The notes under the pieces were generated by a model. That model was not told the origin of the DNA. It worked only from the letters and a program-made list of their open reading frames with translations, and searched no databases. 64,000 bases of DNA, taken from Narcine bancroftii. Lineage: Eukaryota. How positions within the stretch are numbered: position 1 is the stretch's first letter; every line of letters begins with the position of its first letter. Location of the stretch: assembly GCF_036971445.1 (NCBI RefSeq), contig NC_091478.1, forward strand, positions 32,302,001 to 32,366,000. The letters run 5' to 3'. The position numbers and the translations under genes are program-made. Shown piece by piece: positions 8,160 to 58,929 of this stretch.

Positions 8160-8666
8160 ACAAGTACTCTGTGATTAGTAAGGGATCGCTTAAGGAAGTA
8201 ATGTTGGGTGGGAAGGGAAGGTTGAGAACCACTGCTCTAAACCCAATTGTTAAAATATTTTGCTTGAGAAAAATTGTCATTGGCCCATTTCCTTTGGCGT
8301 GATGAAATCGTGCACATAACGAGTCAATGAGGTACGATTAAAACAGTGGTTTTCAAACTTTTTCTTTCCACCTACATACCACCTTAGGCAATCCCTTACT
8401 AATCACAGAGCACCAATGGCATAGGGAATACTTAAAGTCTCACTGACGAAAGGCAAAGGAGGAAAAACCCAACACCCAACCCCAACCAACCAATTTTCCC
8501 CTGCAGCCGCTGCAACCGTGTCTGCCTGTCCCGCATCGGACTTGTCAGCCACAAACGAGCCTGCAGCTGACGTGGACTTTTACCCCCTCCATAAATCTTC
8601 GTCCGCGAAGCCAAGCCAAAGAAAGAAGAAAGATGTGAGTGGAAAGAAAGCGTTTGAGAACCACTG
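8160..8666 (-). mobile_element. Compound hAT (Charlie-like) MITE interrupted by an RTE tail
   Basis: CAGTGGTT...AACCACTG modules around the same ~110-bp core as at 30399 and 51509. Confidence 0.75.
8439..8632 (+). mobile_element. RTE-clade LINE 3' tail (~190 bp)
   Basis: Near-identical to the 3' end of the RTE at 36735-37579; GAA-rich tail. Confidence 0.9.
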
Positions 8667-18878: not shown

Positions 18879-19147
18879 CCCCTCTCCTCCCCCCTCTCTC
18901 CCCCCCCCTCCCCCCCCCTCCCCCTCTCCCCCCCCTCCCCCTCCCCCCTCTCCCTCTCCCCCTCCCCCCTCTCCCCCTCCCCCTCCCCCCCTCTCCCCCT
19001 CCCTCCTCCCCTCTCCCCNNNNNNNNNNNNNNNNNNNNNNNNNNNNNNNNNNNNNNNNNNNNNNNNNNNNNNNNNNNNNNNNNNNNNNNNNNNNNNNNNN
19101 NNNNNNNNNNNNNNNNNNNNNNNNNNNNNNNNNNNNNNNNNNNNNNN
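18879..19147. other. C-rich low-complexity tract (G-quadruplex-prone on the minus strand) ending in a 129-N assembly gap
   Basis: Near-pure C/T tract 18879-19018, Ns at 19019-19147. Confidence 0.9.
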
Positions 19148-20083: not shown

Positions 20084-20613
20084 TGTACTGACAATAACTA
20101 TACCAGCAGTGCGAGTATAAGATCGCTTTAATAAACTAATGTGTACATTAAGAGGTCTTGTCTCTTTCCAAGTGTACATATTAGTTTATTAAATTGTACT
20201 GACAATAACCACACCAGCAGTGCGAGTATAAGACAGCTTTAATCAACGAATATGTACACTAAGAGGTCTTGTCTCTCTGCAAGACCTCTTAGTGTACATA
20301 TTAGTTTATTAAATTGTACTGACAACAACCACACCAGCAGTGCGAGTATAAGACTGCTTTAATAAACTAATGTGTACATTAAGAGGTCTTGTCTCTTTCC
20401 AAGTGTACATATTAGTTTATTAAATTGTACTGACAATAACCACACCAGCAGTGCGAGTATAAGACAGCTTTAATAAACGAATATGTACACTAAGAGGTCT
20501 TGTCTCTCTGCAAGATAAAGCTGGAAGGCTACACTGTAGCTCTGAACTGCTTGATATACAAGGTCACCGGGATGACCCCTGATGACCTAGTGGTATAATT
20601 ACATATCACCACA
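20084..20613 (-). repeat. Solo LTR (20426-20613) whose end is amplified as 111/120/111-bp tandem fold-back units
   Basis: Units start TGTACTGAC at 20084, 20195, 20315, 20426; the array ends ACCACA at 20613; flanks GAGGC/GAGGT (5-bp TSD, one mismatch). Confidence 0.75.
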
Positions 20614-25699: not shown

Positions 25700-26405
25700 T
25701 TTTGGAATCGATAGATTTAGGCGTGGCCCCAGAGGGCTGAAAAATCACAAATGTCACCCCACTCCAAGAAAGGAGTGAGGCAGCAGAAAGAAAATTATGG
25801 GCCAATTAGCCTGACATCAGTGGTTGAGAAGACATTGGAGTTGATTGTAAAGGATGAGGTTATGTTGAAAAGGGGTCAAAGGAGGTTCACAAGGATGATT
25901 CTTGGAAGGGTTATCACATGAGGAAAATTTGACACCTCTTGGCCTGCATTCTGGAATTTAGGAGAATGAGGGAGGGTCTCATTGAAACATTTTGAATGTT
26001 TCTGTTCTAAGCAGGTGTCCTTCAATTCTGAAGTTATGCTCCCTTCTCCAAGTCTCTCCCATCATGGGAAACAATCTTTAGACATTTATCCCATCCATGC
26101 CTTTCCTTTCCCATGATGGGAGAGACTTGGAGAAGGGGGCATAACTTCAGAATTGAAGGACACCTGCTTAGAACAGAGGTGTATGGGAATTATTTCACCC
26201 AGAGGGTGGTGAATCTGTGGAATTTGTTGCCAGATCATTAGATGTTATTCAAGACAGAGATTAATAGGTTCTTGATGAGACAAGCCATTGAAGGTTATGG
26301 GGAGAGGCTGGGCAGTGAGGCTGAGTGGGGAAAATGGATCAACTCATGATTAAATAGTGAAGCAAACTCAATGGGTTAAATAGCCTGTTTCTACTATGTC
26401 TTATG
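25700..26405 (+). mobile_element. CR1 LINE fragment containing a 71-bp-arm inverted duplication
   Basis: CR1 ORF2/3' UTR motifs (CAGAGGGTGGTGAATCTGTGGAATT, GGTTATGGGGAGA); hairpin 26001-26177. Confidence 0.75.
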
Positions 26406-30398: not shown

Positions 30399-30671
30399 CA
30401 GTGGTTCTCAACCTTTTTCTTTCCACTCACATATCACTTTAAGTAATCCCTATGATTAGTAATGGATTGCTTAAGGTAGTTTGTGAGTGGGAAGGGAAGT
30501 TTGAGAATCACTACGCTAGACCGAATTGTTACTGAAATATTTTGCTTGAGAAAAATTGTCATTGGCCCATTTCCTTTGGAGTGATGAAACCGTGCACATA
30601 ACGAGTCAGTGAGGTACAATTAAAACAGTGGTTTTCAAACGTTTTATTTCCACCCCCATACCATCTTAAGC
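30399..30671 (-). mobile_element. Compound hAT MITE (second module truncated), nested in a Rex1-like element
   Basis: CAGTGGTTCTCAACC start, shared core, second CAGTGGTTTTCAAAC at 30626. Confidence 0.75.
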
Positions 30672-35482: not shown

Positions 35483-35755
35483 CTTCTTTTTTCTTCTTAT
35501 TTTTCTTTGGCTTGGCTTCGCGGAGGAAGATTTATGGAGGGGTATATCCACGCCTGCTGCAGGCTCATTGGTGACTGACAAGTCCGATGCGGGACAGGCA
35601 GGCACGGTTGCAGTGGTTGCAAGGGTAAATTGGTTGGTTGGGGTTGGGTGTTGGGTTTTTCCTCCTTTGTCTTTTGTCAGTGAGGTGGGCTCTGCGGTCT
35701 TCTTCAAAGGAGGTTGCTGCCCGCCGAATTGTGAGGCGCCAAGATGCACAGTTGG
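35483..35755 (-). mobile_element. RTE-clade LINE 3' fragment with 18-bp TSD
   Basis: Encodes RASWR...CNHCNRACLSRIGLVSH; TSD AACAGCATTGCACTAGCT at 35465-35482 and 35756-35773. Confidence 0.88.
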
Positions 35756-36734
35756 AACAGCATTGCACTAGCTACCATCATAATTAATCCCCTTCCACAA
35801 GTTTACAGAAAAGCATAACCTTTTATCCAGAATTCTGAAAACCGGCAACCTCCAAAAACCAGCACTTTTTTCGATAGATGACATCTGCTCAGCAAAGACG
35901 GAGTTTGGCACCAAACATGACATAGCGTGACCCTAGCTGAACTCCTGTGTAACCCGTCATGTTCCATTATTTTATAAGCACCTCCGAATCACCTATACTG
36001 ATGCCTGTCCAGTGTCGCAGCGCTTTCACTTGGCCCAGCGGTGGAGGCTGAATGGTCGTTGACACTCTCCATAATCCCCACACAGCTGAAACCGCTGTAC
36101 CAGCGCCAGTGCAGAGGAACCGAGAATGGGGCCATTCATGTGGCATTGGTACAGCAGGGGTTGGGGTAAAAGGGAGAGACGGCCGTGCGACTTGAGCGGG
36201 CAAGTGCTCCGCATTTGGAGTCCTGGTCAGGCCCTCGGCGCAACCCGGCTCCCCTCCACGCCAGTGTCCCGATCAGGCCCTCGGCGCAACCCAGCTCCCC
36301 TCCATGGAAATGACATCAGAAGAGTGAGCAGCATTGCTAGTTCAGCAGGGCAAACCTGCACGTGTCCAGGCAAGTCTCAGTGCTCCCTGCAGGGTCCATC
36401 CCTCCAGTCTTATTTATCTGAAAGCCTATATATCTATTTATTTATGGTTGTTTGAGTTTCCGGTTGATTGATTTCCAGATAAATGGGGGTTTTACTATAT
36501 ATAACATGCTCTACTTGGAATTAGAACAGTTCTTAAATTCTCCACTAGATGGCACAAAAGGTTTCAAATTTTTGAAAAGAACTACAGTATCTTTTCAAGT
36601 TATTTGGTATGATGAAGGAAAACTCTTCAGTATTAATGACTTTTCTCGGAACTCTTGCCAAGATGTCATTAAAAGATACTCAAATTGCCTTTTAATTGCA
36701 AAGTATTTTCACCATGGTTTGTTTGCTTACATTA

Positions 36735-37579
36735 TCTTTCTTCTTTCTTCTTTGGCTTGGCTTCGCGGACGAAGATTTATGGAGGGGGTAAAAAGTCCAC
36801 GTCAGCTGCAGGCTCGTTTGTGGCTGACCAGTCCGATGCGGGACAGGCAGACACGATTGCAGCGGTTGCAAGGGAAAATTGGTTGGTTGGGGTTGGGTGT
36901 TGGGTTTTTCCTCCTTTGCCTTTTGTCAGTGAGGTGGGCTCTGCGGTCTTCTTCAAAGGAGGCTGCTGCCCGCCAAACTGTGAGGCGCCAAGATGCACGG
37001 TTTGAGGCGTTATCAGCCCACTGGCGGTGGTCAATGTGGCAGGCACCAAGAGATTTCTTTAGGCAGTCCTTGTACCTTTTCTTTGGTGCACCTCTGTCAC
37101 GGTGGCCAGTGGAGAGCTCGCCATATAATACGATCTTGGGAAGGCGATGGTCCTCCATTCTGGAGACGTGACCCATCCAGCGCAGCTGGATCTTCAGCAG
37201 CGTGGACTCGATGCTGTCGACCTCTGCCATCTCGAGTACCTCGACGTTAGGGGTGTGAGCGCTCCAATGGATGTTGAGGATGGAGCGGAGACAACGCTGG
37301 TGGAAGCGTTCTAGGAGCCGTAGGTGGTGCCGGTAAAGGACCCATGATTCGGAGCCGAACAGGAGTGTGGGTATGACAACGGCTCTGTATATGCTTATCT
37401 TTGTGAGGTTTTTCAGTTGGTTGTTTTTCCAGACTCTTTTGTGTAGTCTTCCAAAGGCGCTATTTGCCTTGGCGAGTCTGTTGTCTATCTCATTGTCGAT
37501 CCTTGCATCTGATGAAATGGTGCAGCCGAGATAGGTAAACTGGTTGACCGTTTTGAGTTTTGTGTGCCCGATGGAGATT
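36735..37579 (-). mobile_element. Young 5'-truncated RTE-clade LINE with open ORF C-terminus
   Basis: FTYLGCTISSDARIDNEIDNRLAKANSAFGRL...QLRWMGHVSRMEDHRLPK...CNRCNRVCLSRIGLVSHKRACS*, no internal stops. Confidence 0.92.
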
Positions 37580-38110
37580 AAACAGATATACCCCTGTTTT
37601 TCTTTGGGAAGCAAGCTATTGTATATTGGTCTTTCTCCACATTTTCATAATATTTTTTCAATTGTGAGCTTGGAGGCTTTACTACTTCTACTTGTCTGAG
37701 GTAAATGGGAGAATTTGCACATACTTATGAAATCAAGTCAGCACATAACTCCACTATATATTAAAACCTTCCTCTGCTTGTTGCAAATATTTATTGATCA
37801 CTTGACCATTTTTTCTATGGTGTAGCAGGGTAGTAGTTAAGACAGCAAATAGAGAAAAAAATCTTGATCATGCATAATCGGTTGGTTGGCTTCCTCAAAA
37901 GAAACCTTGATGCTTTGTTGCCTTGAATCTTGACTTTTTAATGCTGACCATAAGATTTTAAAGCAAACAAAATATTACATTTTCTTAATTTACAGACATT
38001 GTATAAATCAAATGACATTTGTGTGTGCATAGTTTTTTAATATAGCTTTATTAAATGCACAAGTTACTTGACGATGTATGGCATAAAAAAATCTCTGGTT
38101 TTCCGTATAG

Positions 38111-43393: not shown

Positions 43394-43519
43394 ATGCTGA
43401 ACATTTCTTCAGACTTTGAAAATGAGAAACTTGAACGTCAAAATCTGCAGCATCAATTAAGCAAAGTTTTGAAAGAATTGCGTAAGGCACGAGAGCAAAT
43501 TGCAAGGCTTGAGAATACT
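43394..43519 (+). CDS. CEP55: CEP55 coding exon 7
   Basis: ttatag|MLNISSDFENEKLERQNLQHQLSKVLKELRKAREQIARLENT|gtaagt, 126 nt. Confidence 0.95.
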
Positions 43520-43773
43520 GTAAGTATCCAGATAATTTACTAGCTTAGTATCCTTTGTAAAGTATGCTTCCATTTTTCCATACAAGATGTTGATGTGATT
43601 TCCTGCATAATGATGACTGAACTCGGCAGCATAATGAACACTAATGAACAGCATAACGACACTAATAGGCTTAATTAACATTGCTGAGATATGTTAACTG
43701 ACATTTTGGCGGGGGCAATGAGAATAGTCAATATAACAAAAAAAGCTCAATTGTAAAATGGGTATAGGAATAC

Positions 43774-43963
43774 CTCACTGACAAAAGGCAAAGGAGGAAA
43801 AACCCAACACCCAACCCCAACCAACCAATTTTCCCCTGCAACCGCTGCAATCGTGTCTGCCTGTCCCGCATCGGACTTGTCAGCCACAAACGAGCTTGCA
43901 GCTGACGTGGACTTTTTACCCCCTCCATAAATCTTCGTCCGCGAAGCCAAGCCAAAGAAGAAG
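43774..43963 (+). mobile_element. RTE-clade LINE 3' tail (190 bp) with 10-bp TSD in CEP55 intron 7
   Basis: TSD ATAGGAATAC at 43764-43773 and 43964-43973; near-identical to the other RTE copies. Confidence 0.9.
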
Positions 43964-44140
43964 ATAGGAATACAGTACTCCATACAGTACGATAGCAGCA
44001 GCCTTCAAAAAACATTTTCTGGCCTCTGACGATTGAGATCAAATGAATTACTGAAAAAAAAAATCCCTTGCTGAACTCTTACTGGAATGAATTGTTTGCA
44101 ATTTTTCATAAATAATTTTAAAAACACATTTTTATTTCAG

Positions 44141-44332
44141 AAAGCAGAAGATATCCGCATCTTGGAGCCAGTGTTGAACAGGGATAGAGGAGAAGAAGAA
44201 GAGAAATTAACTTTTCAAAAATCCAAAAATCATCTGGATGAGAGTTTCTTGGAATGTCCCAAGTGCAAAGCTCAGTACCCAACCAGTCAGCACCGTAACC
44301 TGCTGGAGCATATTGATTATTGCAATTACTAA
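44141..44332 (+). CDS. CEP55: CEP55 terminal coding exon 8 (NEMO-like C-terminal zinc finger)
   Basis: tttcag|KAEDIR...LDESFLECPKCKAQYPTSQHRNLLEHIDYCNY*; exons sum to 1338 nt (445 aa + stop). Confidence 0.95.
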   Translation, partial: KAEDIRILEPVLNRDRGEEEEKLTFQKSKNHLDESFLECPKCKAQYPTSQHRNLLEHIDYCNY

Positions 44333-46138
44333 GATCTGTCAAGTTTGTTTTTCCTCTTCCTTTTCCAGTTGCATTTTTAAAGTTTGCGATTTTTAAAGAT
44401 ATGGCCCCAGGGAATAATTAATTAGGAAATTAGATGGCCTTGGTCATTAGAATACATGCGAACAATGGTTGGGATTGTTTACAATTTTGTTCATGGACAT
44501 TATTTCTTCAAATGGCGTTGATCTTTTTTTCCAAGTACATCCTTTTAAATATTCTGTATTAATCAAGTGGGAAATAATACTCTTATATCATGCCAAAAAA
44601 AATTCACCTGAACATTAAAAAAAAATTAGAATATTTGGAGTCTCGAACATCAAGCTTTGCTGCATTATCTTGCAATTGCTCTAAGGCTTCAGTGTAATCT
44701 TGAACTGCAGTCAGTTCTGTAGATAAAGCAAACTGAGAAGATAGAGTTAAATTAGGGCAAAGGGCTGTTCTGTTATGGACAGAATTCTGCTATGTTGATT
44801 AAGCACTCCAAATCTTGCAGTCATTTGTTAATGTTTCTCAGCAGGGCAAAGGAATTTTAAATTTGTTTTTTTCCCTCCCTCTGATTTGCACATGAAAGCA
44901 AAACTGTGAAATAATTCACAATACAGTACTTGCATTTAGTTCGTTTGCTGAAGATCTAGTTTTATGCATTGTTTTTCTACTTGGGAATATAGCGTTTTGA
45001 GAAGTTAAATGTATTTTACTGATTTTAATAGTTTATCGTAACTTGAAGTTGTAAGTCTTTTCCTCTGTAACCTCGTTTAACATGTACACCTATAAACATA
45101 TACTTTTCGTCGTGTTGACATGCCTTCACAGTTCCATTCTTAGAACTCCTGGGAAGCCATAAAAGCCTTTATTGCTTGATGACCTGCTTCTGAACCTGAT
45201 TATGGCATGTTTATATTGTATTAATTGGTTGTTTTAAAATAAGCATAAATTTTTTTTAAAAATTAGTTTTTTTAAGCCATTTATAGTGATCTAATTGATC
45301 ATGGTGTTCAATGATCTAAAATTAACTGACATTTGGATGCAAACAACTTTCTCGCAACCTTTGATTAACCTTTTTGTTCAGTTAGCTTTGCCAGAGATTA
45401 CTGAATTTGGTGATTTCAAAGAACTAGTATTGCAGGAAGCACTGATGGGGAAAATTTACTGAAGCAGTTTTCCAGTTACAGCAAAATATTGAGATACATT
45501 ACTGAATATATGCTACTGTTAAATATTATTTTAGAATATTTTGTTTAAAGATCTTTCCTTTTTAGAATGTTTATTTAAATGCTCCTTTTGAATTAAGATA
45601 TAAGCATACCATCTTTTGGGTAAAGGACTTGTGGAAAATGAATGATTATAGGTTGCTCTTTCCATATTTATTTTTCACACCGAATGGTTCTGTTAAGAGG
45701 TGCATTATTTTAATATATGAAAGCTTCATAATTTGAATCTGTTTTGCACTTTTCTTTAAGCGTAAAAGGTGCAAAGGGGGCGGACTATTTCAAGTTCAGC
45801 CTCTATGTATATGCTGTAGGGCCAGAGCAGGAACCATGACAGTTTCCTTCCAGGTTGTTGTAATTTTGCCATTATTTTTGGATGGTTTTAATTCAAGTTT
45901 TATGAACCATCCATTTGCAGCTTGGGTAACAGAATATTAACCAGTTCCTGAAGTTAATCTTGAGCCAGTTACAACAGATGGCATGATGTTGTTCTCTTGC
46001 ACAATATTGTTGAGAGGCATCTGGTCTGGAATGTCGTTCCAGAAAAGAACTGGGATAATAAACGTGGAGGGTGGGGGAATTTTCAGTGTGGTTTGTAATT
46101 TTCTAATGCACTGTAACAACCCACTTCATTCTTCCCCA

Positions 46139-46387
46139 AATAAATTTTAATGTTTCTTAAAGCTTCACCTCTCAAGATCAGTTGTATATGAATATAGTAA
46201 ATTAGTTTGAATTTGTGGTTTATAGTTTGAATACTAACATTTTAGCTCAAACCAATAACCTCAAGAAGTTGAATATTTTTATAAAACTTAAATTATTTAG
46301 GTGAAGTCAGAATGGGTTGTATAGAGTTTTATTTTTCATATTTTAAACATTGTCCATTTTTATAATTATATAAACAGAGTGATTAAA
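46139..46387 (+). terminator. Candidate CEP55 polyadenylation signals (long AU-rich 3' UTR)
   Basis: AATAAA 46139-46144 and ATTAAA 46382-46387, the latter followed by a GT/T-rich tract. Confidence 0.4.
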
Positions 46388-47629
46388 AATATTGCATTGT
46401 TTGGTTTCTTTTTGCTGAAGTAATCTCTTTATTTGCAAACAAAATATTTAGTCATTTTAAGGTAACTTGAAATAAGTGATTTTATCTCAATTTATTTCCT
46501 TATCAATGAAGCATGTCAAGAGCAGTTTGCCGTTCATTTTCTGCTCAGTTGAAAATGGTATATATGTTGTAAAAGATTTGGTGTCAAATAACTTGCATTT
46601 GTTCAGCCAATTGTAGAGTCAGCTTTTTTGCAACATTAGTGATGGAACAACTTGAAGTGATAGGGAGAATCTAGTCTGGCTAACTTCAATAATGCCTAAT
46701 ATGCCTCAAAAGAGGTGATTAAAAATATTTACTTGCTGAAGAGAGTTGTTTCATATCTTTGTTTCTGCTTTATGTCAAACGGAATTGCATTGCATCTGAA
46801 CATTTTGAAAACACCTTTAGACAGTGTCTGTGAACAGAAAGTGGACCTGAGGTGGCCAATGTTACCCACATTAGAAGATGTTTAGTGCGCTGCAGTTAGG
46901 TCTAAACAAATTTTCAAAAGCATGATAAATGTTGACTGTTGTAACACACCTAATCTTGAAGTTGGTCAGTTTTGTTGCAAGGAAACCGAGCCTTTGGCCC
47001 AAGTGATCTACACTGACCAAGTTGCCTACCCGAGCCAGTCCCTTTTGCTTGTGTTTGGCACATATTCCTCTAAAACATTCCTATGCATGCACTTGTCCAA
47101 ACATCTTTTGAACCTGACATTTGTAACCACTTCTGCTCCTTCCTCTGGCAGCTCATTTCTGTGCAAAAAAAAAACAAATCAGGGTGGGAGGGCAGAAGAG
47201 CTGGGAAGTGATGGGGGAGGGTACCGTCCTCTGAATGGAGAGGAAAGGGGGTGGGAAAATGGAGGGAAGAAGGATAGAGAGAGATAGAGGAAAAGGAAGG
47301 GGCCTAACAGAAACCAGCAGGTCTTCAGTCATTTGTAGTCTTTGTTCACAACAGAATAATATGCAGAGAAGTCCAATTGTTAATTCCTAACAATTTGCTG
47401 GCTCCATTCAATTATGTAATTGTCTAATTTCTCCAGTCCTTAAACCAGTATGTGATCCTGGCTGACTGGTGATGTGATTATTTACATGATTGATACTGTG
47501 TGCAACATGCCAAATCTAAATAAACCATGCTTGGTTAAAGCAACATTGAAGATATGGAATGATTGCAGTTTCGGGGATAGTCTAGAGCAGCTATTCTCAT
47601 CTCTAGTAACACATTTTTTTAATGCAGTC

Positions 47630-47743
47630 CAGTGGTTTTCAACCTTTTTCTTTCCACCCACATATCACCTTAAGTAATCCCTTACATATCACAGAGCACC
47701 TATGGCATAGGGAATACTTAGTGGTATGTGAGTGGAACCACAG
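47630..47743 (+). mobile_element. Single hAT MITE module
   Basis: CAGTGGTTTTCAACC...GTGGAACCACAG; same module as in the compound elements. Confidence 0.7.
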
Positions 47744-49029
47744 GTTTAAACAAAGCAGATCAAATTTAACCAAAATCTATTTTAATTAAAAGCTGTGGTA
47801 ATGTGCCATCTCCTGTATTTTAAAATTAATAATACATATGTTTCATTAGTCTTATTAAGACTTATTGGTATTAACCAGGCCTAGACAGGTCTCAGGCACC
47901 CAGTTTCAAGGCAATCCCTAGTTTCCACTCTCAAACTTGCCTCTCGGTGATTAAGCTAAGCCTGGATGTTGGTGCCCATGATGTTCCCTTGGCTAGATGC
48001 AGGTTGGTCCTTTTTTCCTTCAGTTTCCATGTGCTTCAGCCCTTAAATCTTAACTTGTGATGATGTTATTGGCTGATCTTATAAGGAGTGTTTTCTGCTT
48101 TGGTGATTCATAGTCCAGACCCCACTGACTGTCAGTTTTGTAGGAAATCTGCTATTCCATCTCAAAGATGGGATTTTCAAATATGGGAATTTCTGGACAA
48201 AGGAAGACTTAGCCAAACATGTCTTGGTAACAAATTACTACTCTCAACAAGTCATGTCTGGAAATCCCTTCTCATGATATTCTAATCCACAGGCATTCCC
48301 TGATAATCCAGATATTCAGGCATCCCTGATAAAAACCCTTTGTTGATACAAACCACTGTTGGTTGTGTGGCAACAGGCTCCGATAGATGAGTTTTTGTCT
48401 CTGCAACTGTGTGGCCTGCTTTACACTACTGACTTACAATATCATTAAAACAGCTTCAAAGAATCTCAGTAAATGTTTAATTTTGGTGTCATCTTATAAA
48501 CATTCATTATTTATTAACTTTTTTTCCAGGATTGCCAAGGGAATCATTAACAGCTATGCTAAAAAGCACATTTTGATAAGATCACCAATGCACAAGAATG
48601 GAAAAGATTAAATTTTTTTAATTACAGGGGATCTGGACATTTTACTAATAATTCCATGCAATTCCCTTGAATAAGACAAATTGCAGATTTGCATTATCAG
48701 ACATAACCTCATTTCCTCTCTCTGCCTTTTCTTTGAGTTCAGAATGGAAAAAGTACAAATTTTCTTGGTGACTCAAAACAAGCGCAACATCACATCTTAT
48801 CTTGAGTCTTGTAAGAATGATCTGCACAAGGATGTCTTGTAATCTGGTGTCTGAACTTATTTCCACTCCAGAAAAAGTTGATCCCCCACCCCCTTACACA
48901 ATGCCAAAAAAGCTAAGGTAGTGTCCAGGGTTTTTATTTATATTTGACAAAATAATGAAGAAATTATTTTAGTGAGGGCAGAAAAACTATTTATTGTCCA
49001 AGCCAAAACAGAAAACCCAGTATAATAAA

Positions 49030-50065
49030 GAGTGAAATAGTGAACTGGATTTGATAGTGGCTGGATGGGAGATGCCAGAGTAGTGGTGGATGATTACTTC
49101 TCAGACTGGAGGCCTGTGACTAGTCGTTTGCCTCAGGGATTGGTGCTGGGACCATTGTTGTGTGTCATTTTTATCATTGATCTGGATGATAATGTGGTAA
49201 ATTTGATCAGCAAATTTGCAGATGACACTATGATTGGAAGTGATGTGGGCAGCAAAGAAGATTTTCAAAGCTTCCAGAAGGAGCTGGACTTAGAAAAATG
49301 GGTTGAAACATGGCAGATGGAATTTAATGCAGACAAGTGTGAGTTGTTGCATTTTGGAGGACAAACTAAGAAAGGACACACACAGTAAATGGTAGGGCAC
49401 TGAGGAGTGCAGTAGAACAGAGGGTCCTGGGAATACAGATACATACTTCCCTGAAAGTGGATAGGGTTGTAAAGAGAAGTTTTGGCATATTGCCCTTTGT
49501 AAATCAAAGTATTGAGTATAGGAGTTGGGATATTATGGTAAAGCTGTATAAGGCACTGAGGCCAAATTTGGAGTTTTGGTCACCTTACTGCAGGAAGGAT
49601 ATCAATAAGGTTGAAAGAGTGATTTACTAGGATGTAGCCCGGACTTTAGGAACTGAATTACAGGGAAAGGTTAAACAGATTAGGACTTTATTCCCTGGAG
49701 TATAGAAGAATGAAGGAAGATTTGATAGTTATTTAAAATTGAGGGGGAAAGACAGAGTAAATGTAGATTGACTTTTCCCACTGAGGGTAGGTGAGATACA
49801 AACCAGAGGGCATGGGTTAAGAGTGAAAAGGGAAAAGTTTAGGGGAACTTCACAACACAGAGTTGTGGGAGTGTGGAACAAGTTGCCATTTGAGGTGGTG
49901 AATGTGGGCTCAATTTTAACTTTTAAGAAGGATTTGGACATGTACATTGATGGAAGAAGTATGGAGGGCTATGGACTGGGTACAAATCAGTGGAACTGGG
50001 CAAAAAAATTGGTTTGGCACAGGCTGAAAGGGCCTGTTTCTGTGCTGTAATGTTCTATGATTCTA
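49030..50065 (+). mobile_element. Degenerate CR1 LINE (RT plus 3' end)
   Basis: SDWRPVTSRLPQGLVLGPLL...ISKFADDT...WQMEFNADKCELLHFG; CTGTGCTGTAATGTTCTATG tail. Confidence 0.88.
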
Positions 50066-51508
50066 TATATTTTATGTCTTAGTAATTTGGATTGGAAGAG
50101 TGAAAAAATGCCTTGAATTTTAAACTCATTTTACAGTTATTAGGTAAATAACATCATCATGGGTAACATCAGTGAATTGCATATTTCAGTATTCACAACA
50201 ATTTTTCTCATCAGCTATGTTATTTATTGCTTCAGCAAATTAACTTAATTCCAATCTATGCCAACCAGTGTCATATTAGAGTTAACAGCAAGGCCAAGGT
50301 TCTATCTTTAATGCCATATTAATTTTCTTTATTAATAGGAGGCCATTTTGGCTCATCAGTCTTTACCAGATCACAGAGCATTCCCAATTAATTTTTCCTG
50401 TACTATTTTTCCCACTCCTACTGGATTGAATAGTGGTTAGTCTTTAATATACAGTATTTAACATAGACATGGAAGCGACAGAAGACTTTTCAACCAACAA
50501 CTGCAACCTATTAAAGCATGACTGATCCTTGACTTCAACATTGCTTTCTCAATTCAACCGGTCAGTAATGAACCAGATTCAACTCACAGCCAGTGCCATG
50601 ATCATTTAAGTAGCGTCACTAATCGTATTATGTGGTGTTTGACCTGAAGATGTACAAAGCAGCTGAAATATTCCAGATCTGGATAAGCTGTCCTGGCGAT
50701 AAACCAGACAATTAAATACATTAAAAAAAACTCCATCTAAGGTGTTCATAAAACAATCTCAAGACGCTGGCTGAATGTTTGGGTACTTCAGAAACTTTCT
50801 GTGAAGTATTCCGTACATAAGTTATGAGGAGCAATTGTAAAAAAGACAGTCACACTCCCTGGAACTTAGCAGTTGAAGTGTTCAAATCATAGGTTGAATG
50901 AAAGGGTATGTTAAAGTGGACCTTGGTGGTTTGAAAACAAACACAGCTGCACAAACTTTTAATCACTTTGCAAAGCATGAAAACTTAACAGCCACAAGTA
51001 CTGCAATGAGCAGCTTGTCTTGCTATCAAGACAGTTTCCTCATGGATTGAAAATTATGTAATTTTATACCTTCAGACCCCTAGGGTTCCCTAAAATTCAA
51101 ATTGACAGCTCCATATGGCTGCATACATCTATTCCTTAGAATTGGGATTTGTTAATCAGGGTTGTGTCCTGTACCCAATGGTCTTTTACTACCAAAAAAG
51201 ATTGTTATCAGCTCTAGCTGATAAAGAACAGAATGCAGAAATCTGCCTGCCAGTCAGTATTTTAAGCATTCTCAAGTAGATAAAGAAAGAGGCGAGACTC
51301 CACAATAAAGATAGCATTTTTGAGAATTTAAACCCACTTTGTTCTCCTGATAATTAGGAAACAAAGGGAAGTTGATATTTGGAACAATCTACTGTAAATG
51401 GCAAATAAATTTAAACCAGAACAAAATAAACTTTTGTTACCTAGAATGATGAAGTTGTTCGAGCAAAGGTGGTAATGTTGTTTAATTCAGATCAGCCATA
51501 ATTTAACT

Positions 51509-51863
51509 CAGTGGTTTTCAAACTTTTTCTTTCCACCCACATTCTACCATAAGTGGTCTGTGATTAGTAAGGGATTGCTTAAGGTGGTATATGAGTGGAA
51601 AGAAAATGTTTGAAAACCACTGTTTTAATCGTACCTAATTGACACGTTATGTGCACGGTTTCATAACTCCAAAGGAAATGGGCCAATGACCATTTCTCTC
51701 AAGCAAAATATTTCAGTAACAATTGAGCCGAGAGCAGTGATTCTCAACCTTCCCTTTCCATTCACATACCTCCTTAAGCAATCCCATACTAATCACAGAG
51801 CACCTATGGCATCGGGATTACTTAAGGTGACATGAGTGAAAAGAAAAAGTTTGAAAACCATTG
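51509..51863 (+). mobile_element. Complete compound hAT (Charlie-like) MITE
   Basis: Outer TIRs CAGTGGTTTTCAAAC / GTTTGAAAACCATTG; 8-bp TSD ATTTAACT/ATCTAACT; internal TIRs ending 51622 and starting 51735. Confidence 0.85.
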
Positions 51864-52315
51864 ATCTAACTGAATAGCAGAACCAACTTAAGGACAGATT
51901 GACTTATCTCCTGTCATTTTATTTCACATAAGTCAACGGAACTATTTAGGATACTCTCTCCAAATAAATTTACATTCATCTTTTAGTAAGGTGAGCCACA
52001 ATGAACACAACAGTCCATATGTGGTTTCAACAAAGCCTTTTAGAATCCAACAAGACTTACTTTGTCAAATATGTCAAGCACAATGTTTAAAAAAAAGGTG
52101 AATATCCTATTTGCTTATGGATCTGTATGTCAACATGTAAACATTCAAGTCCATTTTGGCATTAACCTGTGCCACAATAATTGTAGTACCTTTGGTTTAA
52201 GCTTCTATTCCTTAACTAATAATTTTGATTAATCACTGTCTCCCCAGAGTTTATCATTCATTTGGTTGAATAAATCTAATTTGGCAGTAATGCCAAATTT
52301 TGCATATTTAAACAG

Positions 52316-52444
52316 GAATATCAGATTTGCACACTGGTGTGGCCAAATGCAGTGGAAGAAATCATTTGGGATGTGTACTACAGCCTGGTTGATTTTGCTA
52401 TTCCAGGATTAATCGTTGTTGTCAGTTACACAAAAATATTAAAG
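52316..52444 (+). CDS. FFAR4: Free fatty acid receptor 4 (GPR120), second coding exon (ECL2-TM5)
   Basis: aaacag|EYQICTLVWPNAVEEIIWDVYYSLVDFAIPGLIVVVSYTKILK|gtatct, 129 nt; human EISICTLIWPTIPGEISWDVSFVTLNFLVPGLVIVISYSKILQ; syntenic between CEP55 and RBP4. Confidence 0.92.
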
Positions 52445-52899
52445 GTATCTTCATTCCATAGAACTAATGGATGTTGTACATTAAAGCACAAAATTCTGGA
52501 AATGCTCATCTGTGGAGAAGGAAATAGATTTCAAAATAATGACTTTCCATATAAACTGCTGCATTTAAAATAATGTACAGTGAAAGAAATGAACATTTTT
52601 GTTGAATTCATGTTCCATGAGGACAGTGGGTTACTGAGGCCATATTGCAAAAAGGGACTTGGGTGTTTAAATGTTGACATGCAAGTCAAACAGCACCAAG
52701 TATTAAAACTATTGTGAACTAGGAACATGAGGCTTGGTTGTTCTGAAACTCAGTGAGTTGGATTGCACTGCACACTGCATTCTGCTCAAGGATGTTGCAA
52801 GGTTCATATGGACTAGTGTGCACTGACAGTTGGATGGAATTACCCACATTCCCAAAGACCCCCCCCCCTGCTCAGAGTCTCCCTCTGTCCCTTATGCTC

Positions 52900-53262
52900 T
52901 CTTGCCCAGTCACGCACTGTCCCTCATGACCTCTGCCCATCGTCAGCCACTGACCCCTATGCTCCCTGCCCATCGTCACCCACTGTCCCTTATGCCCCCT
53001 GCCCATTGTCACCCACTGTCCCTCATGATCTCTGCCCATTGTCACCCACTGTCCCTCATGACCACCCATGTCCATGGTCACCCACTGCCCATATCCCATG
53101 GTCACTCATGCCCCCTGCCCAGAGTCACCCACTGTCCCTCATGACCACCCATGTCCATGGTCACCCACTGCCCATATCCCATGGTCACTCATGCCCCCAG
53201 CCCAGAGTCACCCATTCTCCCACAGAGCCCCCCACTGTCCCACATGACCCCTACCCATGTTA
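52900..53262. repeat. 30-bp minisatellite in the FFAR4 intron
   Basis: About 11-12 units like CACCCACTGTCCCTCATGATCTCTGCCCATTGT, with a ~90-bp higher-order duplication at the 3' end. Confidence 0.9.
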
Positions 53263-53376
53263 TCCATTGTGACAATACCACTCTCAAATCAGGATTAATA
53301 GTATTCAGAATAACGTGTTAAATGCATGAATTGACAATAAATTTTCACTTTGTGACGATACAACCTTTTTATGCAG

Positions 53377-53790
53377 ATAACTAAAGCTGCCAGTAGAAGA
53401 CTGCAAGCCAACAGACCACATTCGGTTTACCTGCAGCAGATTTCAGTTTCCAAACAGGATTATTGGCTCTTCCGGACTCTCCTGGTCCTCATCCTCTCCT
53501 TCTTTATCATGTGGACTCCCATTTCTCTCGTCATCTTTTTACTTATAGCACAAAACTTTAAAGGTGATTTGCAACTTTCCTCCACCTGGTTTTTCTGGGT
53601 CAGTGTATTTACCCTGGCCAATTCCGCTGTGAACCCTATTTTATATGGCACCTCTCAATGTAAGAGCAAATGGAAACATATGCTTAATTTCTTCTCCTTA
53701 TCCCGTTTTAAAAACCGTGGCAGCTTGGCTGCAGAGCATGTACTAAGGAGAGTAAGAACTCAAGATCATCAGACCCTCTGTTATTTGTAA
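53377..53790 (+). CDS. FFAR4: FFAR4 terminal coding exon (ICL3-TM6-TM7-C tail)
   Basis: atgcag|ITKAASRRL...VSKQDYWLFRTLLVLILSFFIMWTP...FTLANSAVNPILY...TLCYL*; WxP and NPxxY motifs intact. Confidence 0.93.
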   Translation: MTKAASRRLQANRPHSVYLQQISVSKQDYWLFRTLLVLILSFFIMWTPISLVIFLLIAQNFKGDLQLSSTWFFWVSVFTLANSAVNPILYGTSQCKSKWKHMLNFFSLSRFKNRGSLAAEHVLRRVRTQDHQTLCYL

Positions 53791-54286
53791 CTAAATTATG
53801 AACAAAGAGAATTGAGTTAATTCATGGAGTTAATTACATAACTGTAACCTGAGCAAACACATTGGGTATTCTCAGGTGGAAGAAGCTGTGATTCCAAATA
53901 TTGTATGTGTTTTGCATTTGGGTTTTAGTGAACGTTCTGCATTGGATAAGTAGATGCAAGAGGACAGAATTGATTCTCAAATTCTATAAATCCATTGTTA
54001 TACTGTCAGAAAAATAGAGCATTTATTGTAAACTTTTCCTTTTTATAGTTATCCTAATCTGAGATCCTGATTCTAATTAAAATAGGTTTACACACAAATG
54101 TTGGTCATAACTTTATTTGACAAGTAATAATAGCGCAAAAGCAATACATGACTGGAAGTCCACTTGCACTTAAAATGCGAGCTTTAGAAAAATATATTCA
54201 CGGTGACTGAACCTGGTCCAGGTGTGGCACTTCAGACCAATATTCACAACCATGATCCTTGCCGAAGTGGCACCAATCCAGTGGCT

Positions 54287-54300
54287 CTATGGGCACGAGT
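54287..54300 (-). CDS. RBP4: Retinol-binding protein 4, terminal coding exon
   Basis: tcttatgcag|AC TCG TGC CCA TAG gives (D)SCP*, supplying the conserved last Cys; minus-strand AATAAA at 54112-54117. Confidence 0.8.
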
Positions 54301-57300
54301 CTGCATAAGAAACAAAATATACCTCATTCAGATTCTGTGATCATAACTCTAACACAAATGTCAATGGATTGAGTGAAATATCCTTCTGAATCAATGATTA
54401 AAAATGTCAGAATGATAAGAAAATGTAAAGGATGAACAGAAAAAAGCAAGAACCATCTCAACAATGTAACTCGCATTCACTCCAACAGACACGAAATTTG
54501 AGAAACCATCACCTTAAAGAGTATAGAAAACAACACATGTGGACCCTTACTCTGGAAGCCTCATTCTCCCCCTCCCCAAAAAAATGTATTCACTCTTTGC
54601 TCACATTCTAATCACTGACCAGAAATCTAGAGAGGTTGGCGTATGTTGTTAGTTTATTTGCTACTGAAGCTCCCATTATTTTAAGAATAAATGCGTACAA
54701 CGTTCATACACACTCATCTGCTCTTTTTAATACATTGGAGCAGCTCTTTTCTCTGGGCACTGGAGCATCTGCGAGATAGACACAGTTCTTTGTGGAAGTC
54801 TCAAAGTTTAGCACTGGTGCGGGCTTGAGTAGCCAACACCCTACAGTATTCCTCAATGCTGCAGGCTACTCTTGCACAGCAATAATGGAGTCCAAGGGAA
54901 TAAGCTGAAGTTCAGCAGACTTCCTAGCTCTTGGAATGTCTGCTGAATCTATGCCAGATCAACTCTGGAACAAGGACTACAGTCTAATTTAAATCAATGC
55001 ATTATTGATAGGAGAGAGGTAAAGGTATCTTTTTATTTAATTTAATTGACTTGATGTAAATGGATTTAACGAATTTAAGGATGCATGTTTTTTGTTTTGG
55101 CTTTTAGAATAATGTATATTTTTAATTGTTTTTTTCCACATGCCTCCTTGGTATTCTTAAATGTGAATATCAATTGTGAATATGAATGTGAATAGGACCA
55201 TGTTGGAAACTACTGTGTGGCCTGAGGTTAGATAGCTGGCAATCTCAGGATCAATGGAAATCTGTCTTATTACCCAATATTACTGTTTGAGGGGACTCGA
55301 GAACTTTTATAGTCTATGGGCAAAGTTATGTTCAAGGGATGTTGATAATTGGGCCAAGAAAGACATTCATACTTGTTAAAACTAACCTTGTAGATGTTTC
55401 TGACTTCATAAAACAACAATAAATGAAAACAAAAACTGCAGATGCAGGAAATGTGAACTCAAACAGAAAATGTTAGAAATACTCAGCAGGATCTGTAGAG
55501 AAAGAAACAAGAGTTAATATTTCAGGTCAAAGCCCTTTCATCTCTTCATCTTACCACAGATGCTACCTGGCCTGCTAAGTGTTCCCAATGTGTTTTTGAT
55601 CTGATTTCAGATTTCTTTATTTAAAATTTGGGAAATGAGGATGAGAAGCTGTTGGAACAAGAGAGCTTCTCGACAACACCAAGATGAGTTACGGCACCAC
55701 CTGGGGGTGGAATTAAAAGGGTGAAAGGAATAAGATTCAGAAATCCTGGGAATCAGTGTTGGATTTTCGTGTTTTGCTACCTGTGTTCGAGTCATCCGGG
55801 TTACAAAAATTTTCTCTCACATAATCCACAAATGGCTGCCCAAAATTTTTAAAAAAAGGAATAACATTCAGTTTCAAGGAATTTATTTGAACACTAACTA
55901 TTTTTTCCTAACTCATTTTACCTAATGCATGGCTTGTGGTTTCACGTACTGGTAATGGAAAATCTTGATATGGGCTGTTTTACAGGAAAGTAACGCCCTC
56001 AAACATGGGAATTACCTGTACATATATTCATTGATGTTCACATTCAAGAATACCAAGGAGGCATGTGGAAAAAAAGCAATTAAAATAATATAAATTATTC
56101 CAAAAGCTAAAACAAAAAACACCTCCTTGAACAAGGAAGTTGTTCATTAAAGGAACAAGCAAATACAACACCCTTGCACAATCATCTCCAGTCAGGAACA
56201 ATATCACTGGGGAGCTATCAAGGCTAAACCAATATTTGTCATATTTCAGAATTTAAATTGTAAAAAAGCATTGCATTTGTTTCAGAAAGTATATGACGAC
56301 CATATCATTGACTGACAGCCATGGTTCCACTGGGATCCACCAATTACAAGCCTTCTGGCCTCCTGTGGGTCCCTGTCCACTATAAATGCTCAGCCAAATA
56401 TGTAGGTCTGAGAAGAGCTGGAGTTTCCATTGCTGGACTCACTGTTGAGCCCAGTGGTAGACCCCTGACACATGGAGAAAGACCTCTGGTCTTTGTATCC
56501 AACTTCATATTGGCTTCAAATCATTTGAAAGCACAAAGGAAAATGCCGATGCTTTGACAGAGGAATTCTGGAAAAAATAGTTTTCACCCTCTGCATTTAT
56601 ACCTGGGAATTGCAGGTTTAAGAATAGCTTTCAGCTGATAAACATGTTAATCCCCAAGAAACATAAAACCCTAGTTTATGAAGGAACATGTTTTTGGAAT
56701 TAACATTTCTGAAATCAGTCAAAGTAATGCAACTAACTTTAATAATGTTATTTTGGGAAAAAACAGATTTTAATGTTTCCAATTACAATATTTTGAACTC
56801 TGGAAATTTGAGTTAATGAAATGTGGGAAAGTTTTTTTGAAAATACTTTGACTTTTCATGATTAATTTCCCTTTGGTTTCCTTCAGCAGATTTTTTTTCA
56901 GGATTGACTGTTGGTTCCTCCATTGTAACTGCAGAGTACGATGGCGACCCACAACAGTAGAAAATTAAATGAGTGGAAGTGCTCAGGAGGCATCCCAAGA
57001 CCTCAATACAAGAGACAAGCCAAAATCTGGTGGACTGAGGCGTCCTTTAGCATTAAGGAGATTGTCGTACGGTAATGAAACCCTTGTCAACAGAAGCCTG
57101 AGTTAGGAAGTACTGAAGAGGGAGAAGCTTTCAAAGGTTTGCTAGATTTGAGAAGAGTAAATTGGAATAGGCCACAGCTTGGAGCCCATTGATAGATGCT
57201 GGAAAGTTAGTATGTTCCAGTGGGCTAGTAGGTCGAAGGCCAGGACAGAGAGAGTAGTTACATTTTGTGGGTAGATCATATTTGGAGCTTGGAGTCTATG

Positions 57301-57360
57301 GACCTGGGTGGACCAAATAATCAGGAGGCACGGAACCCTCAATGGTTTTCATTCATTTAC

Positions 57361-57573
57361 CTGTTTGAAGAACTCGCTTGTATTTGAATGCCAGACAGAT
57401 ATGATCCTGCCACTTCCGGACAATCTGCTGCGTTTCAGGGACCAGACCCATAGGATTGCGCGAGAACACAAATGAATAGCTGTCAGCACAAGTCCTGTTT
57501 TCATACAGTTTTCGGCATGTATATGTGATGGCGTAGTTATCATAATCCGTGTCAATAATCCAATGATCATCAT
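57361..57573 (-). CDS. RBP4: RBP4 penultimate coding exon
   Basis: tttcag|(N)DDHWIIDTDYDNYAITYTCRKLYENRTCADSYSFVFSRNPMGL...ICLAFKYKRVLQT-G|gtaaat, 213 nt; lipocalin TDY motif. Confidence 0.95.
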
Positions 57574-58929
57574 CTGAAAGAAAAACAGTATTCTTTACCC
57601 CAACAGTCACATAAGCCAAGTGAGGTCTACTCGACTTAACAATACTCCAACCTCCCTCTCCAATTTCCTTTCTTCTGTTTGTCATAAATGTAAGTGCATG
57701 AAAAACTCCATGCTAAATCCTGTCCATCCACCATCCTTCTGTGACCATCATTGGATCCTAATCCACCAACATGTAGCTTTAAAATTATGACCATTTCAAA
57801 ATCTATCTAGCCCTGGTTCCACATAAACTTCTATAATCTCATTGCATCCCAAATGCTTGTACCCGAATACCGGATCAAGGTGAATGTGTTACTGCGACTC
57901 GTGATCTTTTCTTCATTATCTTTTGTTTCAATTAAATAATTCAATATGATGCTGTTGAAACGTGAAATCTTGCAAGATCCTAGCAGATCCTCTCTGCTCA
58001 TAAAATACTCTTCTTTCTACTCTGTAAGTATTCTTTCACAGCTGTATGAATGCTAGATACAATGGCGTATCTAGGTAAAAGAGCGCCAATGGCAAGCACT
58101 GAAATTGCGCCTCCCCTCGTTTTAATAAAAACCCACAAAGTTGACAGTTGGGCAATTTTCATGCACAATTGGGCTGGCGTTAACTGCCACACAAACTATG
58201 CCACCTGACATATCCTTGCAAATTTCACACATTGTGCTGTAATTTATTAGAGGTGAATCAGTGGATTAACTCCCACCCAGGCCCCTAGGTTGAGCTTTAT
58301 TTAGTAAGGGAAAGGCTCCCCAGTTCTTGCCCCCCCACCCCCCCACTAACAGAACCCTCGATTGTGAACCACACCACACCACGTTGAGGTTTACCATTCC
58401 TAGTTGCCAAGTCATGGGACACCCCAGGCTCCAGCCCGTGTTGAAGCGACCCAAGCCTTGTGTTTATTTCCTGCCATTCCCGGCTGGAAGCTACAACCTC
58501 TGCAGAAGGACCCACGGCTTCTGTGCTCCTGAAAACTTTGGGTCGGATGACTCGGAAAGTTCCAGGTTGGCAATTCACCGGACTGCTTTGGTCTTTGGGG
58601 CCGCTTGAGCACCTCACAGCGGCAGTTCAATGGGCAAAATGGCCGTCTTCCTTATCCATAATCCCCCACACAGTTGGAACTGCTCTGCGTTTCCCTGGTG
58701 CTAGCACATTGTTTCCAGCTGGTGGGGGATTGAGTAAGGAAGATGACAATTTTGTCCATTGATCCCACACTGAGCCGCTACGAGGTGCCCGAGTGGGCCC
58801 GAACGCTGAAGTGGCCCAATGAGGTGCTGGAGTAGTGTTCTGGCAGCACTGCACCCCTGGCTGGGATGAAATACATGCACTGAACTGGTTACCTAGTATA
58901 TTCAACAATCAAGGAAAATACAATATGTG

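Follow-up and report, generated by a model that had tools for sequence, protein, structure and literature searches.

A probable loss of FFAR4 by deletion of its first coding exon in the electric ray Narcine bancroftii

FFAR4 (GPR120) is a receptor for long-chain fatty acids. We analysed a stretch of 64,000 nucleotides from the electric ray Narcine bancroftii (NCBI RefSeq assembly GCF_036971445.1, contig NC_091478.1, positions 32,302,001 to 32,366,000 of the forward strand), here called the window, in which the second and third coding exons of FFAR4 are found and the first is missing. Exon 1 is absent from the window and from the whole assembly; it has been removed, and is neither eroded nor split. 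This absence is real in the assembly and probably real in the animal. Quite probably a deletion of exon 1 in the electric-ray lineage left FFAR4 as a unitary pseudogene, with exons 2 and 3 as a non-functional remnant, and the locus is likely to record the ordinary loss of a gene in one lineage, not the birth of a fusion protein. An earlier note, made from the letters of the window, had described the missing exon, and searches with positive controls now bear it out.

In 11 of 12 shark and ray FFAR4 proteins exactly 180 residues lie ahead of the start of exon 2; the remaining protein is extended further at its N-terminus. The first exon had been put at about 190 amino acids; the missing part is 180 in elasmobranchs. 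A profile was built from 12 shark and ray N-terminal halves and compared with the window, with stops read as X. Its best score was -2.2 bits for the window; for the interval 44333-52315 it was 1.6 bits, and the maximum over 30 shuffled versions of this interval was 2.9 bits. As a positive control, the profiles of exon 2 and exon 3 scored 88.9 and 210.2 bits. In a leave-out control, planted exon-1 remnants of 30 residues carrying 20% added random changes scored at least 17.6 bits in all nine placements, and only at 35% added change did some of them fall to background. Exon 1 was therefore removed rather than eroded. The earlier test for short exon-1 motifs reached a conclusion that holds, but the test was weak, as several of the mammalian motifs read differently in sharks.

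The search of the interval and the whole assembly proposed in the earlier note also gave no exon 1. The N-terminal half of a stingray FFAR4 has 138 matches in the assembly, solely to other G protein-coupled receptors at 19-36% identity, and rays share 72-89% identity over this half. The 43-residue exon 2 was recovered by the same search with an E-value of 1.5e-16. Among the best candidates scored in this assembly of one haplotype there is no intact FFAR4 copy elsewhere. The interval 44333-52315 contains no N, as had been stated, and the sole N run of the window is at 19019-19147. Two further statements of the earlier note stand: exon 2 has no in-frame ATG, and there is no CpG island, the observed/expected ratio being at most 0.31 in each 1-kb bin of 44001-52000, a figure that carries no weight as evidence.

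The 7tm_1 family (Pfam) is represented at the locus by profile positions 136-260 only. A functional FFAR4 requires seven transmembrane helices including the first four (TM1-4), Arg99 and the ER motif of TM3, and the locus does not supply this set. Arg99 lies in the missing half and is present in nine of nine aligned relatives; it is described as needed for FFAR4 agonist activity (PMC8154576). The FFAR4 proteins of other rays and sharks (P0004 from Amblyraja, P0006 from Mobula, P0009 from Hemitrygon), like the human structure (PDB 24qh_A), have residues 1-180 with TM1-4 and Arg99, which are absent here.

The identity of the two remaining exons is supported by several comparisons. In a protein search they are 100% identical to a Narcine bancroftii RefSeq protein of 259 amino acids named 'free fatty acid receptor 4-like' (P0003); the next matches are FFAR4 proteins of rays and sharks, with 60-74% identity. 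They align with residues 233-347 of human FFAR4 (E 8e-28) and group with rays inside the FFAR4 clade with a bootstrap of 100. Compared with four intact ray proteins they are 77-84% (exon 2) and 69-72% (exon 3) identical. Neither exon is found elsewhere in a search of the whole assembly, exon 3 having one match only in 3.3 Gb.

The RefSeq protein P0003 also lacks FFAR4 exon 1. It shares exons 2 and 3 with our reading of the locus and differs in treating the locus as coding, the hole being filled by 79 added residues of CR1 reverse transcriptase. These residues, 1-79 of the model, map to 49065-49301 and match RVT_1 (Pfam). P0003 is likely to be a prediction artefact in which a CR1 frame is fused to exons 2 and 3. 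The model could instead describe a real new first exon, such as this CR1 reverse-transcriptase frame, spliced to exon 2 to give a three-helix membrane protein. It does exist as a RefSeq model, in frame, with an ATG and a GT donor. The first 79 residues, however, are plain CR1 reverse transcriptase, as would be typical of a gene predictor forced to find a start, a CR1-FFAR4 fusion occurs in no relative among the 120 of 214 matches listed, and a transcript contig over 52316 (below) is unspliced. We regard a new first exon as very improbable.

The earlier note had called exons 2 and 3 intact. This is right for the open frames, the splice sites and the WTP and NPILY motifs, which are retained, but a frameshift in the C-terminal tail near 53776 was missed. 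Of 15 other chondrichthyan sequences aligned, 13 terminate in P-x-[VI]-I-x-x and the other two are models with non-homologous tails. In the Narcine sequence the frame terminates in QTLCYL-stop and the ancestral tail, SVICN-stop, is out of frame at 53777-53794, which would fit the loss of five bases near 53776. Contigs from sequencing runs were compared with the locus: X1 (DNA), X5 and X6 (RNA-like, tissue not on record) and X7. The X1 and X5 contigs over the tail have 0 differences and 0 gaps against the assembly; since both carry identical letters, the frameshift is not a consensus error. The disabling lesions of the putative unitary pseudogene are the absence of exon 1 in the assembly and this tail frameshift.

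Several points weigh against a lost gene. Exons 2 and 3 keep their AG/GT ends and phase-0 junctions and have no internal stop. If the shifted tail is set aside, two otherwise invariant columns carry private changes (4 of 66 when it is included), and intact relatives have 0-5. The tail frameshift alone need not inactivate the receptor. The branch to the Narcine sequence is the longest of six rays (0.23 against 0.10-0.18 from the common node), which speaks for a loss, but the tip branch of the intact gene of the shark Hemiscyllium is 0.21, a comparison uncorrected for a generally faster rate in the electric ray. None of the contigs or reads listed runs through the whole interval, and none bridges the repeats at 47654-47708, 49106-50040 and 51530-51839. 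The X1 run may be the assembly's own source and hence not independent, and the assembly is described as one haplotype, hap1 (10.1101/2025.02.26.637739). The transcript evidence comes from two RNA-like libraries and a list of 15 joints, with a further 1865 joints beyond this list.

Provided that the loss is young in terms of divergence, the open frames can be explained without selection. In simulations a remnant had a 51-62% chance of being free of stops, frameshifts and splice-site losses at 1% neutral divergence; the chance fell to 24-36% at 2% divergence and to 3-10% at 5%. The remnant would thus have drifted for about 5% or less of neutral divergence, long enough for one frameshift. The proposal of a recent exon-1 deletion that left a pseudogene is supported, but 'recent' applies in divergence units only. 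In a shark a mutation rate of 7e-10 per base per generation has been reported (PMC10587355). At such a low rate a short divergence may still correspond to a long time in years, and the electric-ray rate may differ.

The foremost alternative to loss of the gene is that the species has a complete FFAR4, with exon 1 lacking in this haplotype assembly alone, through repeat collapse or a haplotype-specific deletion. The good preservation of exons 2 and 3 and the three unbridged repeat stretches speak for it, and the other rays among the matches listed all carry exon-1 sequence. The same assembly also has a published drop-out of exons, as exons 2 and 3 of GbY are described as missing (PMC13023373). 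In that case we find a GbY-like first exon at G000:C24:31905118 and, about 8 kb downstream, a run of 200 N at 31913046-31913245, a gap that likely explains the missing exons, although N could also be withheld sequence. This gap signature is lacking in the FFAR4 interval. The X1 contigs tile 43941-47654, 47708-49106, 50040-51530 and 51839-53070 with 0 differences, and X5 tiles the same stretches, also with 0 differences. Within unique sequence of the interval the listed contigs show no fork, apart from a break of X1 at 47192-47216, which consists of overlapping ends and is crossed unbroken by X5. X7 gives patchy cover, with one identical piece of 254 letters over exon 2 and no repeat bridged. 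With lengths of about 1 kb or less and differences of 5-20% to other copies, the repeats would be unlikely to make long reads collapse, and the tail frameshift is real in contigs of two runs. Mis-assembly, which the earlier note had left as an option, is less likely than deletion, even with three repeats unbridged, and we consider an intact FFAR4 in the species unlikely.

The coiled-coil gene upstream of the remnant, with its last exon from 44141, is taken here to be CEP55, from the name used in the earlier note and from synteny. It had been suggested that CEP55 transcripts use the phase-0 donor at 43519, or one further upstream, together with the acceptor at 52316, which would join a coiled coil to TM5-7 and keep exons 2 and 3 open. 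The phases do match, the fusion would be in frame, and X5 contigs cover the intergenic stretch; chance alone, however, would bring a large fraction of exon pairs into matching phase, and the simulated survival at 2% neutral divergence shows that open frames can do without such a fusion. In X6 one unbranched contig of 3198 letters (depth 216) contains 726 letters from upstream and then 44141-46612. The X6 depth of 73 in the bin with exon 43394-43519 is consistent with this contig passing through that exon. In X5 the contigs split precisely at 44141, the CEP55 acceptor (depth 9-16). This fork, the X5 loose end at 54303 and the X6 contig running from upstream into 44141 show that both runs contain spliced molecules. 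The X5 contig 51831-52965 nevertheless crosses 52316 and 52444 unspliced and unforked, and another, 53277-54184, crosses 53377 unspliced, although at 44141 the fork can be seen at lower depth. Among the 15 joints listed, all of them in repeats and with 1865 more beyond the list, none runs from 43519 to 52316. Contigs cannot fix the true end of an RNA, and they omit rare variants and show no strand, so that a minor or tissue-restricted fusion could escape them. The two RNA-like runs thus give the read-through no support, and we find it hard to credit. The same low standing is given to a later capture, in which CEP55 would have acquired exons 2 and 3 after the loss of exon 1 in a tissue outside those sampled, exchanging its zinc-finger tail for three membrane helices and becoming a membrane-anchored cytokinesis adaptor.

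Cover of the remnant itself is not taken as FFAR4 expression. X6 has no cover in the exon 2 bins and one contig of 174 letters at depth 3 in exon 3, and such lack of cover is given no weight. No RNA data set is on record for 52200-54300, and two further RNA-like runs shared only 8% of the sequence words; these points are likewise given no weight. Over exon 3 the mean depth of the X5 contig is 495, which may stem from overlap with the 3' end of the downstream gene. The flat X5 cover would most simply be read-through from that gene, RBP4, or genomic DNA. Protein searches for partial products with exon 3 or exon 1 gave 22 and 6 matches, none electric-ray-like; the species' own exon 3 was also missed, so these searches are uninformative.

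A deletion would account for the locus as follows. A deletion between the 3' end of CEP55 and the old intron 1 would have taken exon 1 and probably the promoter too. Without a start codon, TM1-4 or Arg99, presumably no receptor can be made. The remnant would likely be covered only by unspliced read-through of its neighbours (RBP4 antisense, CEP55 sense) or by genomic DNA. It would have begun to drift after the loss, with one frameshift so far.

The sequence between CEP55 and the remnant (Table 1) was searched for traces of such an event. CR1 and hAT insertions had been said to occupy the interval; only about 1.9 kb of it is recognisably repetitive, and about 2.3 kb of the supposed 8 kb lies under the CEP55 transcript contig, which reaches 46612. 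Nor does the CR1 copy appear to have filled a gap after the loss. It is 8.9% from the column majority of its family, evenly along its length (7.7-10.8% per 200 columns) and without a step, and is probably older than the loss. Recombination between two copies is compatible with the even divergence but is not demonstrated by it. The 7-of-8 target duplication of the miniature inverted-repeat transposable element (MITE) at 51509-51863 indicates that its flanks were neighbours at insertion. No target duplication was found at the partial MITE at 47630, whose module is usually internal. Among 29 copies of the element 10 lack an end, and 10 of the 19 copies with both ends keep the duplication; its absence, as at 47630, is common among copies. 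The sequence 47750-49030 is single-copy and 50070-51500 holds just an old repeat; a hunt for breakpoints in these two stretches found no moved copy.

Table 1. Features of the FFAR4 locus, in window positions
Feature	Position	Strand	Remarks
CEP55 penultimate coding exon	43394-43519	+	Open frame, GT donor, phase-0 donor at 43519; X6 bin depth agrees with CEP55 contig
CEP55 last exon	44141-46612	+	Coding part 44141-44332, ending in a CxxC zinc-finger-like motif at the C-terminus; the following 2.3 kb or so likely 3' untranslated region; from translation and contigs
Partial MITE	47630-47745		hAT-like; only the terminal module is present (full inverted-repeat element ~375 bp, 8-bp target duplications); best other copies 94-95% identical
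CR1-type long interspersed nuclear element (LINE) fragment, 5'-truncated	49032-50066	+	Reverse-transcriptase frame 49065-49301; one collinear piece, 79-80% to other copies
Complete MITE	51509-51863		Target duplication matching 7/8
FFAR4 coding exon 2 remnant (second extracellular loop to TM5)	52316-52444	+	43 codons, open, AG/GT intact; exon-2 profile
C-rich minisatellite	52864-53258		33- and 83-bp periods; in intron
FFAR4 coding exon 3 remnant (third intracellular loop, TM6, TM7, tail)	53377-53790	+	137 codons and stop; frameshift near 53776
RBP4 last exon	54100-54300	-	Converges on FFAR4 remnant; has AATAAA close to its end; the loose end of X5 at 54303 equals the next exon, 57364 ff.

The FFAR4 remnant sits between the coiled-coil gene and a lipocalin gene on the minus strand downstream, where a lipocalin domain is matched at 57353-57712 (Pfam). 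Two exons of the coiled-coil gene gave no match in Pfam. The lipocalin gene is presumably RBP4 by synteny, and we take the position of FFAR4 between CEP55 and RBP4 to be the expected one. FFAR4 and RBP4 are tail to tail, with about 310 bases from the FFAR4 stop to the RBP4 poly(A) signal, and one X5 contig runs without splicing from the 3' end of RBP4 into exon 3 of FFAR4.

Other repeats were seen in the window. The ~375-bp inverted-repeat element is abundant, with copies at 8164-8470, 30399-30671, 47630-47745 and 51509-51863; it consists of palindromic modules of ~130 bp and its 8-bp target duplications often surround a TAG core. The 3' end of a LINE, which we presume to be RTE-like, has an open frame of 280 codons at 36802-37644 on the minus strand; short fragments of its 3' end lie at 8439-8623, 35500-35756 and 43772-43962. 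The short copies of this family are 91-100% alike, so the family is young. The CEP55 region also contains a direct repeat of 201 bases (97%; 20084-20515), and a near-perfect inverted repeat of 71 bases with a 35-base spacer lies at 26001-26177.

Some models from related species are unusual. The FFAR4-like protein of Pristis pectinata (P0007, 'LOW QUALITY PROTEIN') has an unrelated N-terminus and is about 36 residues short where the part from exon 1 ends (TM4); exon 1 of this species may be damaged too, or mis-called. The proteins from Rhincodon (P0147) and Scyliorhinus torazame (P0146, X2) have an intact first half and non-homologous C-termini, exon 3 being absent or cut short, which could reflect assembly gaps, isoforms or further losses.

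Unitary pseudogenes that arise through deletion of a first exon are a general class. The Narcine locus resembles this class in that a single-copy gene is disabled at its ancestral position without a replacement copy, and differs in being at an early stage with no internal stop yet. Among bony fishes, ffar4 is reported as absent in zebrafish, salmonids, spotted gar and coelacanth (PMC10029227; PMC10002231), likewise a lineage-specific lack of the same receptor; the word 'shark' appears nowhere in PMC10029227. No gene was found in those fishes, whereas here two well-preserved exons are in place, so that the loss is datable and the lesion visible. A literature search, with most subscription papers and supplements outside it, returned no FFAR4 loss in a ray and no CEP55-FFAR4 fusion. 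The CR1-fused RefSeq entry of 259 amino acids, named as FFAR4-like and likely an artefact, would hide the loss from gene-presence tables. If real, the loss would be independent of those in bony fishes and apparently the first in a cartilaginous fish within the literature searched. It would not be a new kind of system, but would present the loss of a long-chain fatty-acid sensor at an early, datable stage.

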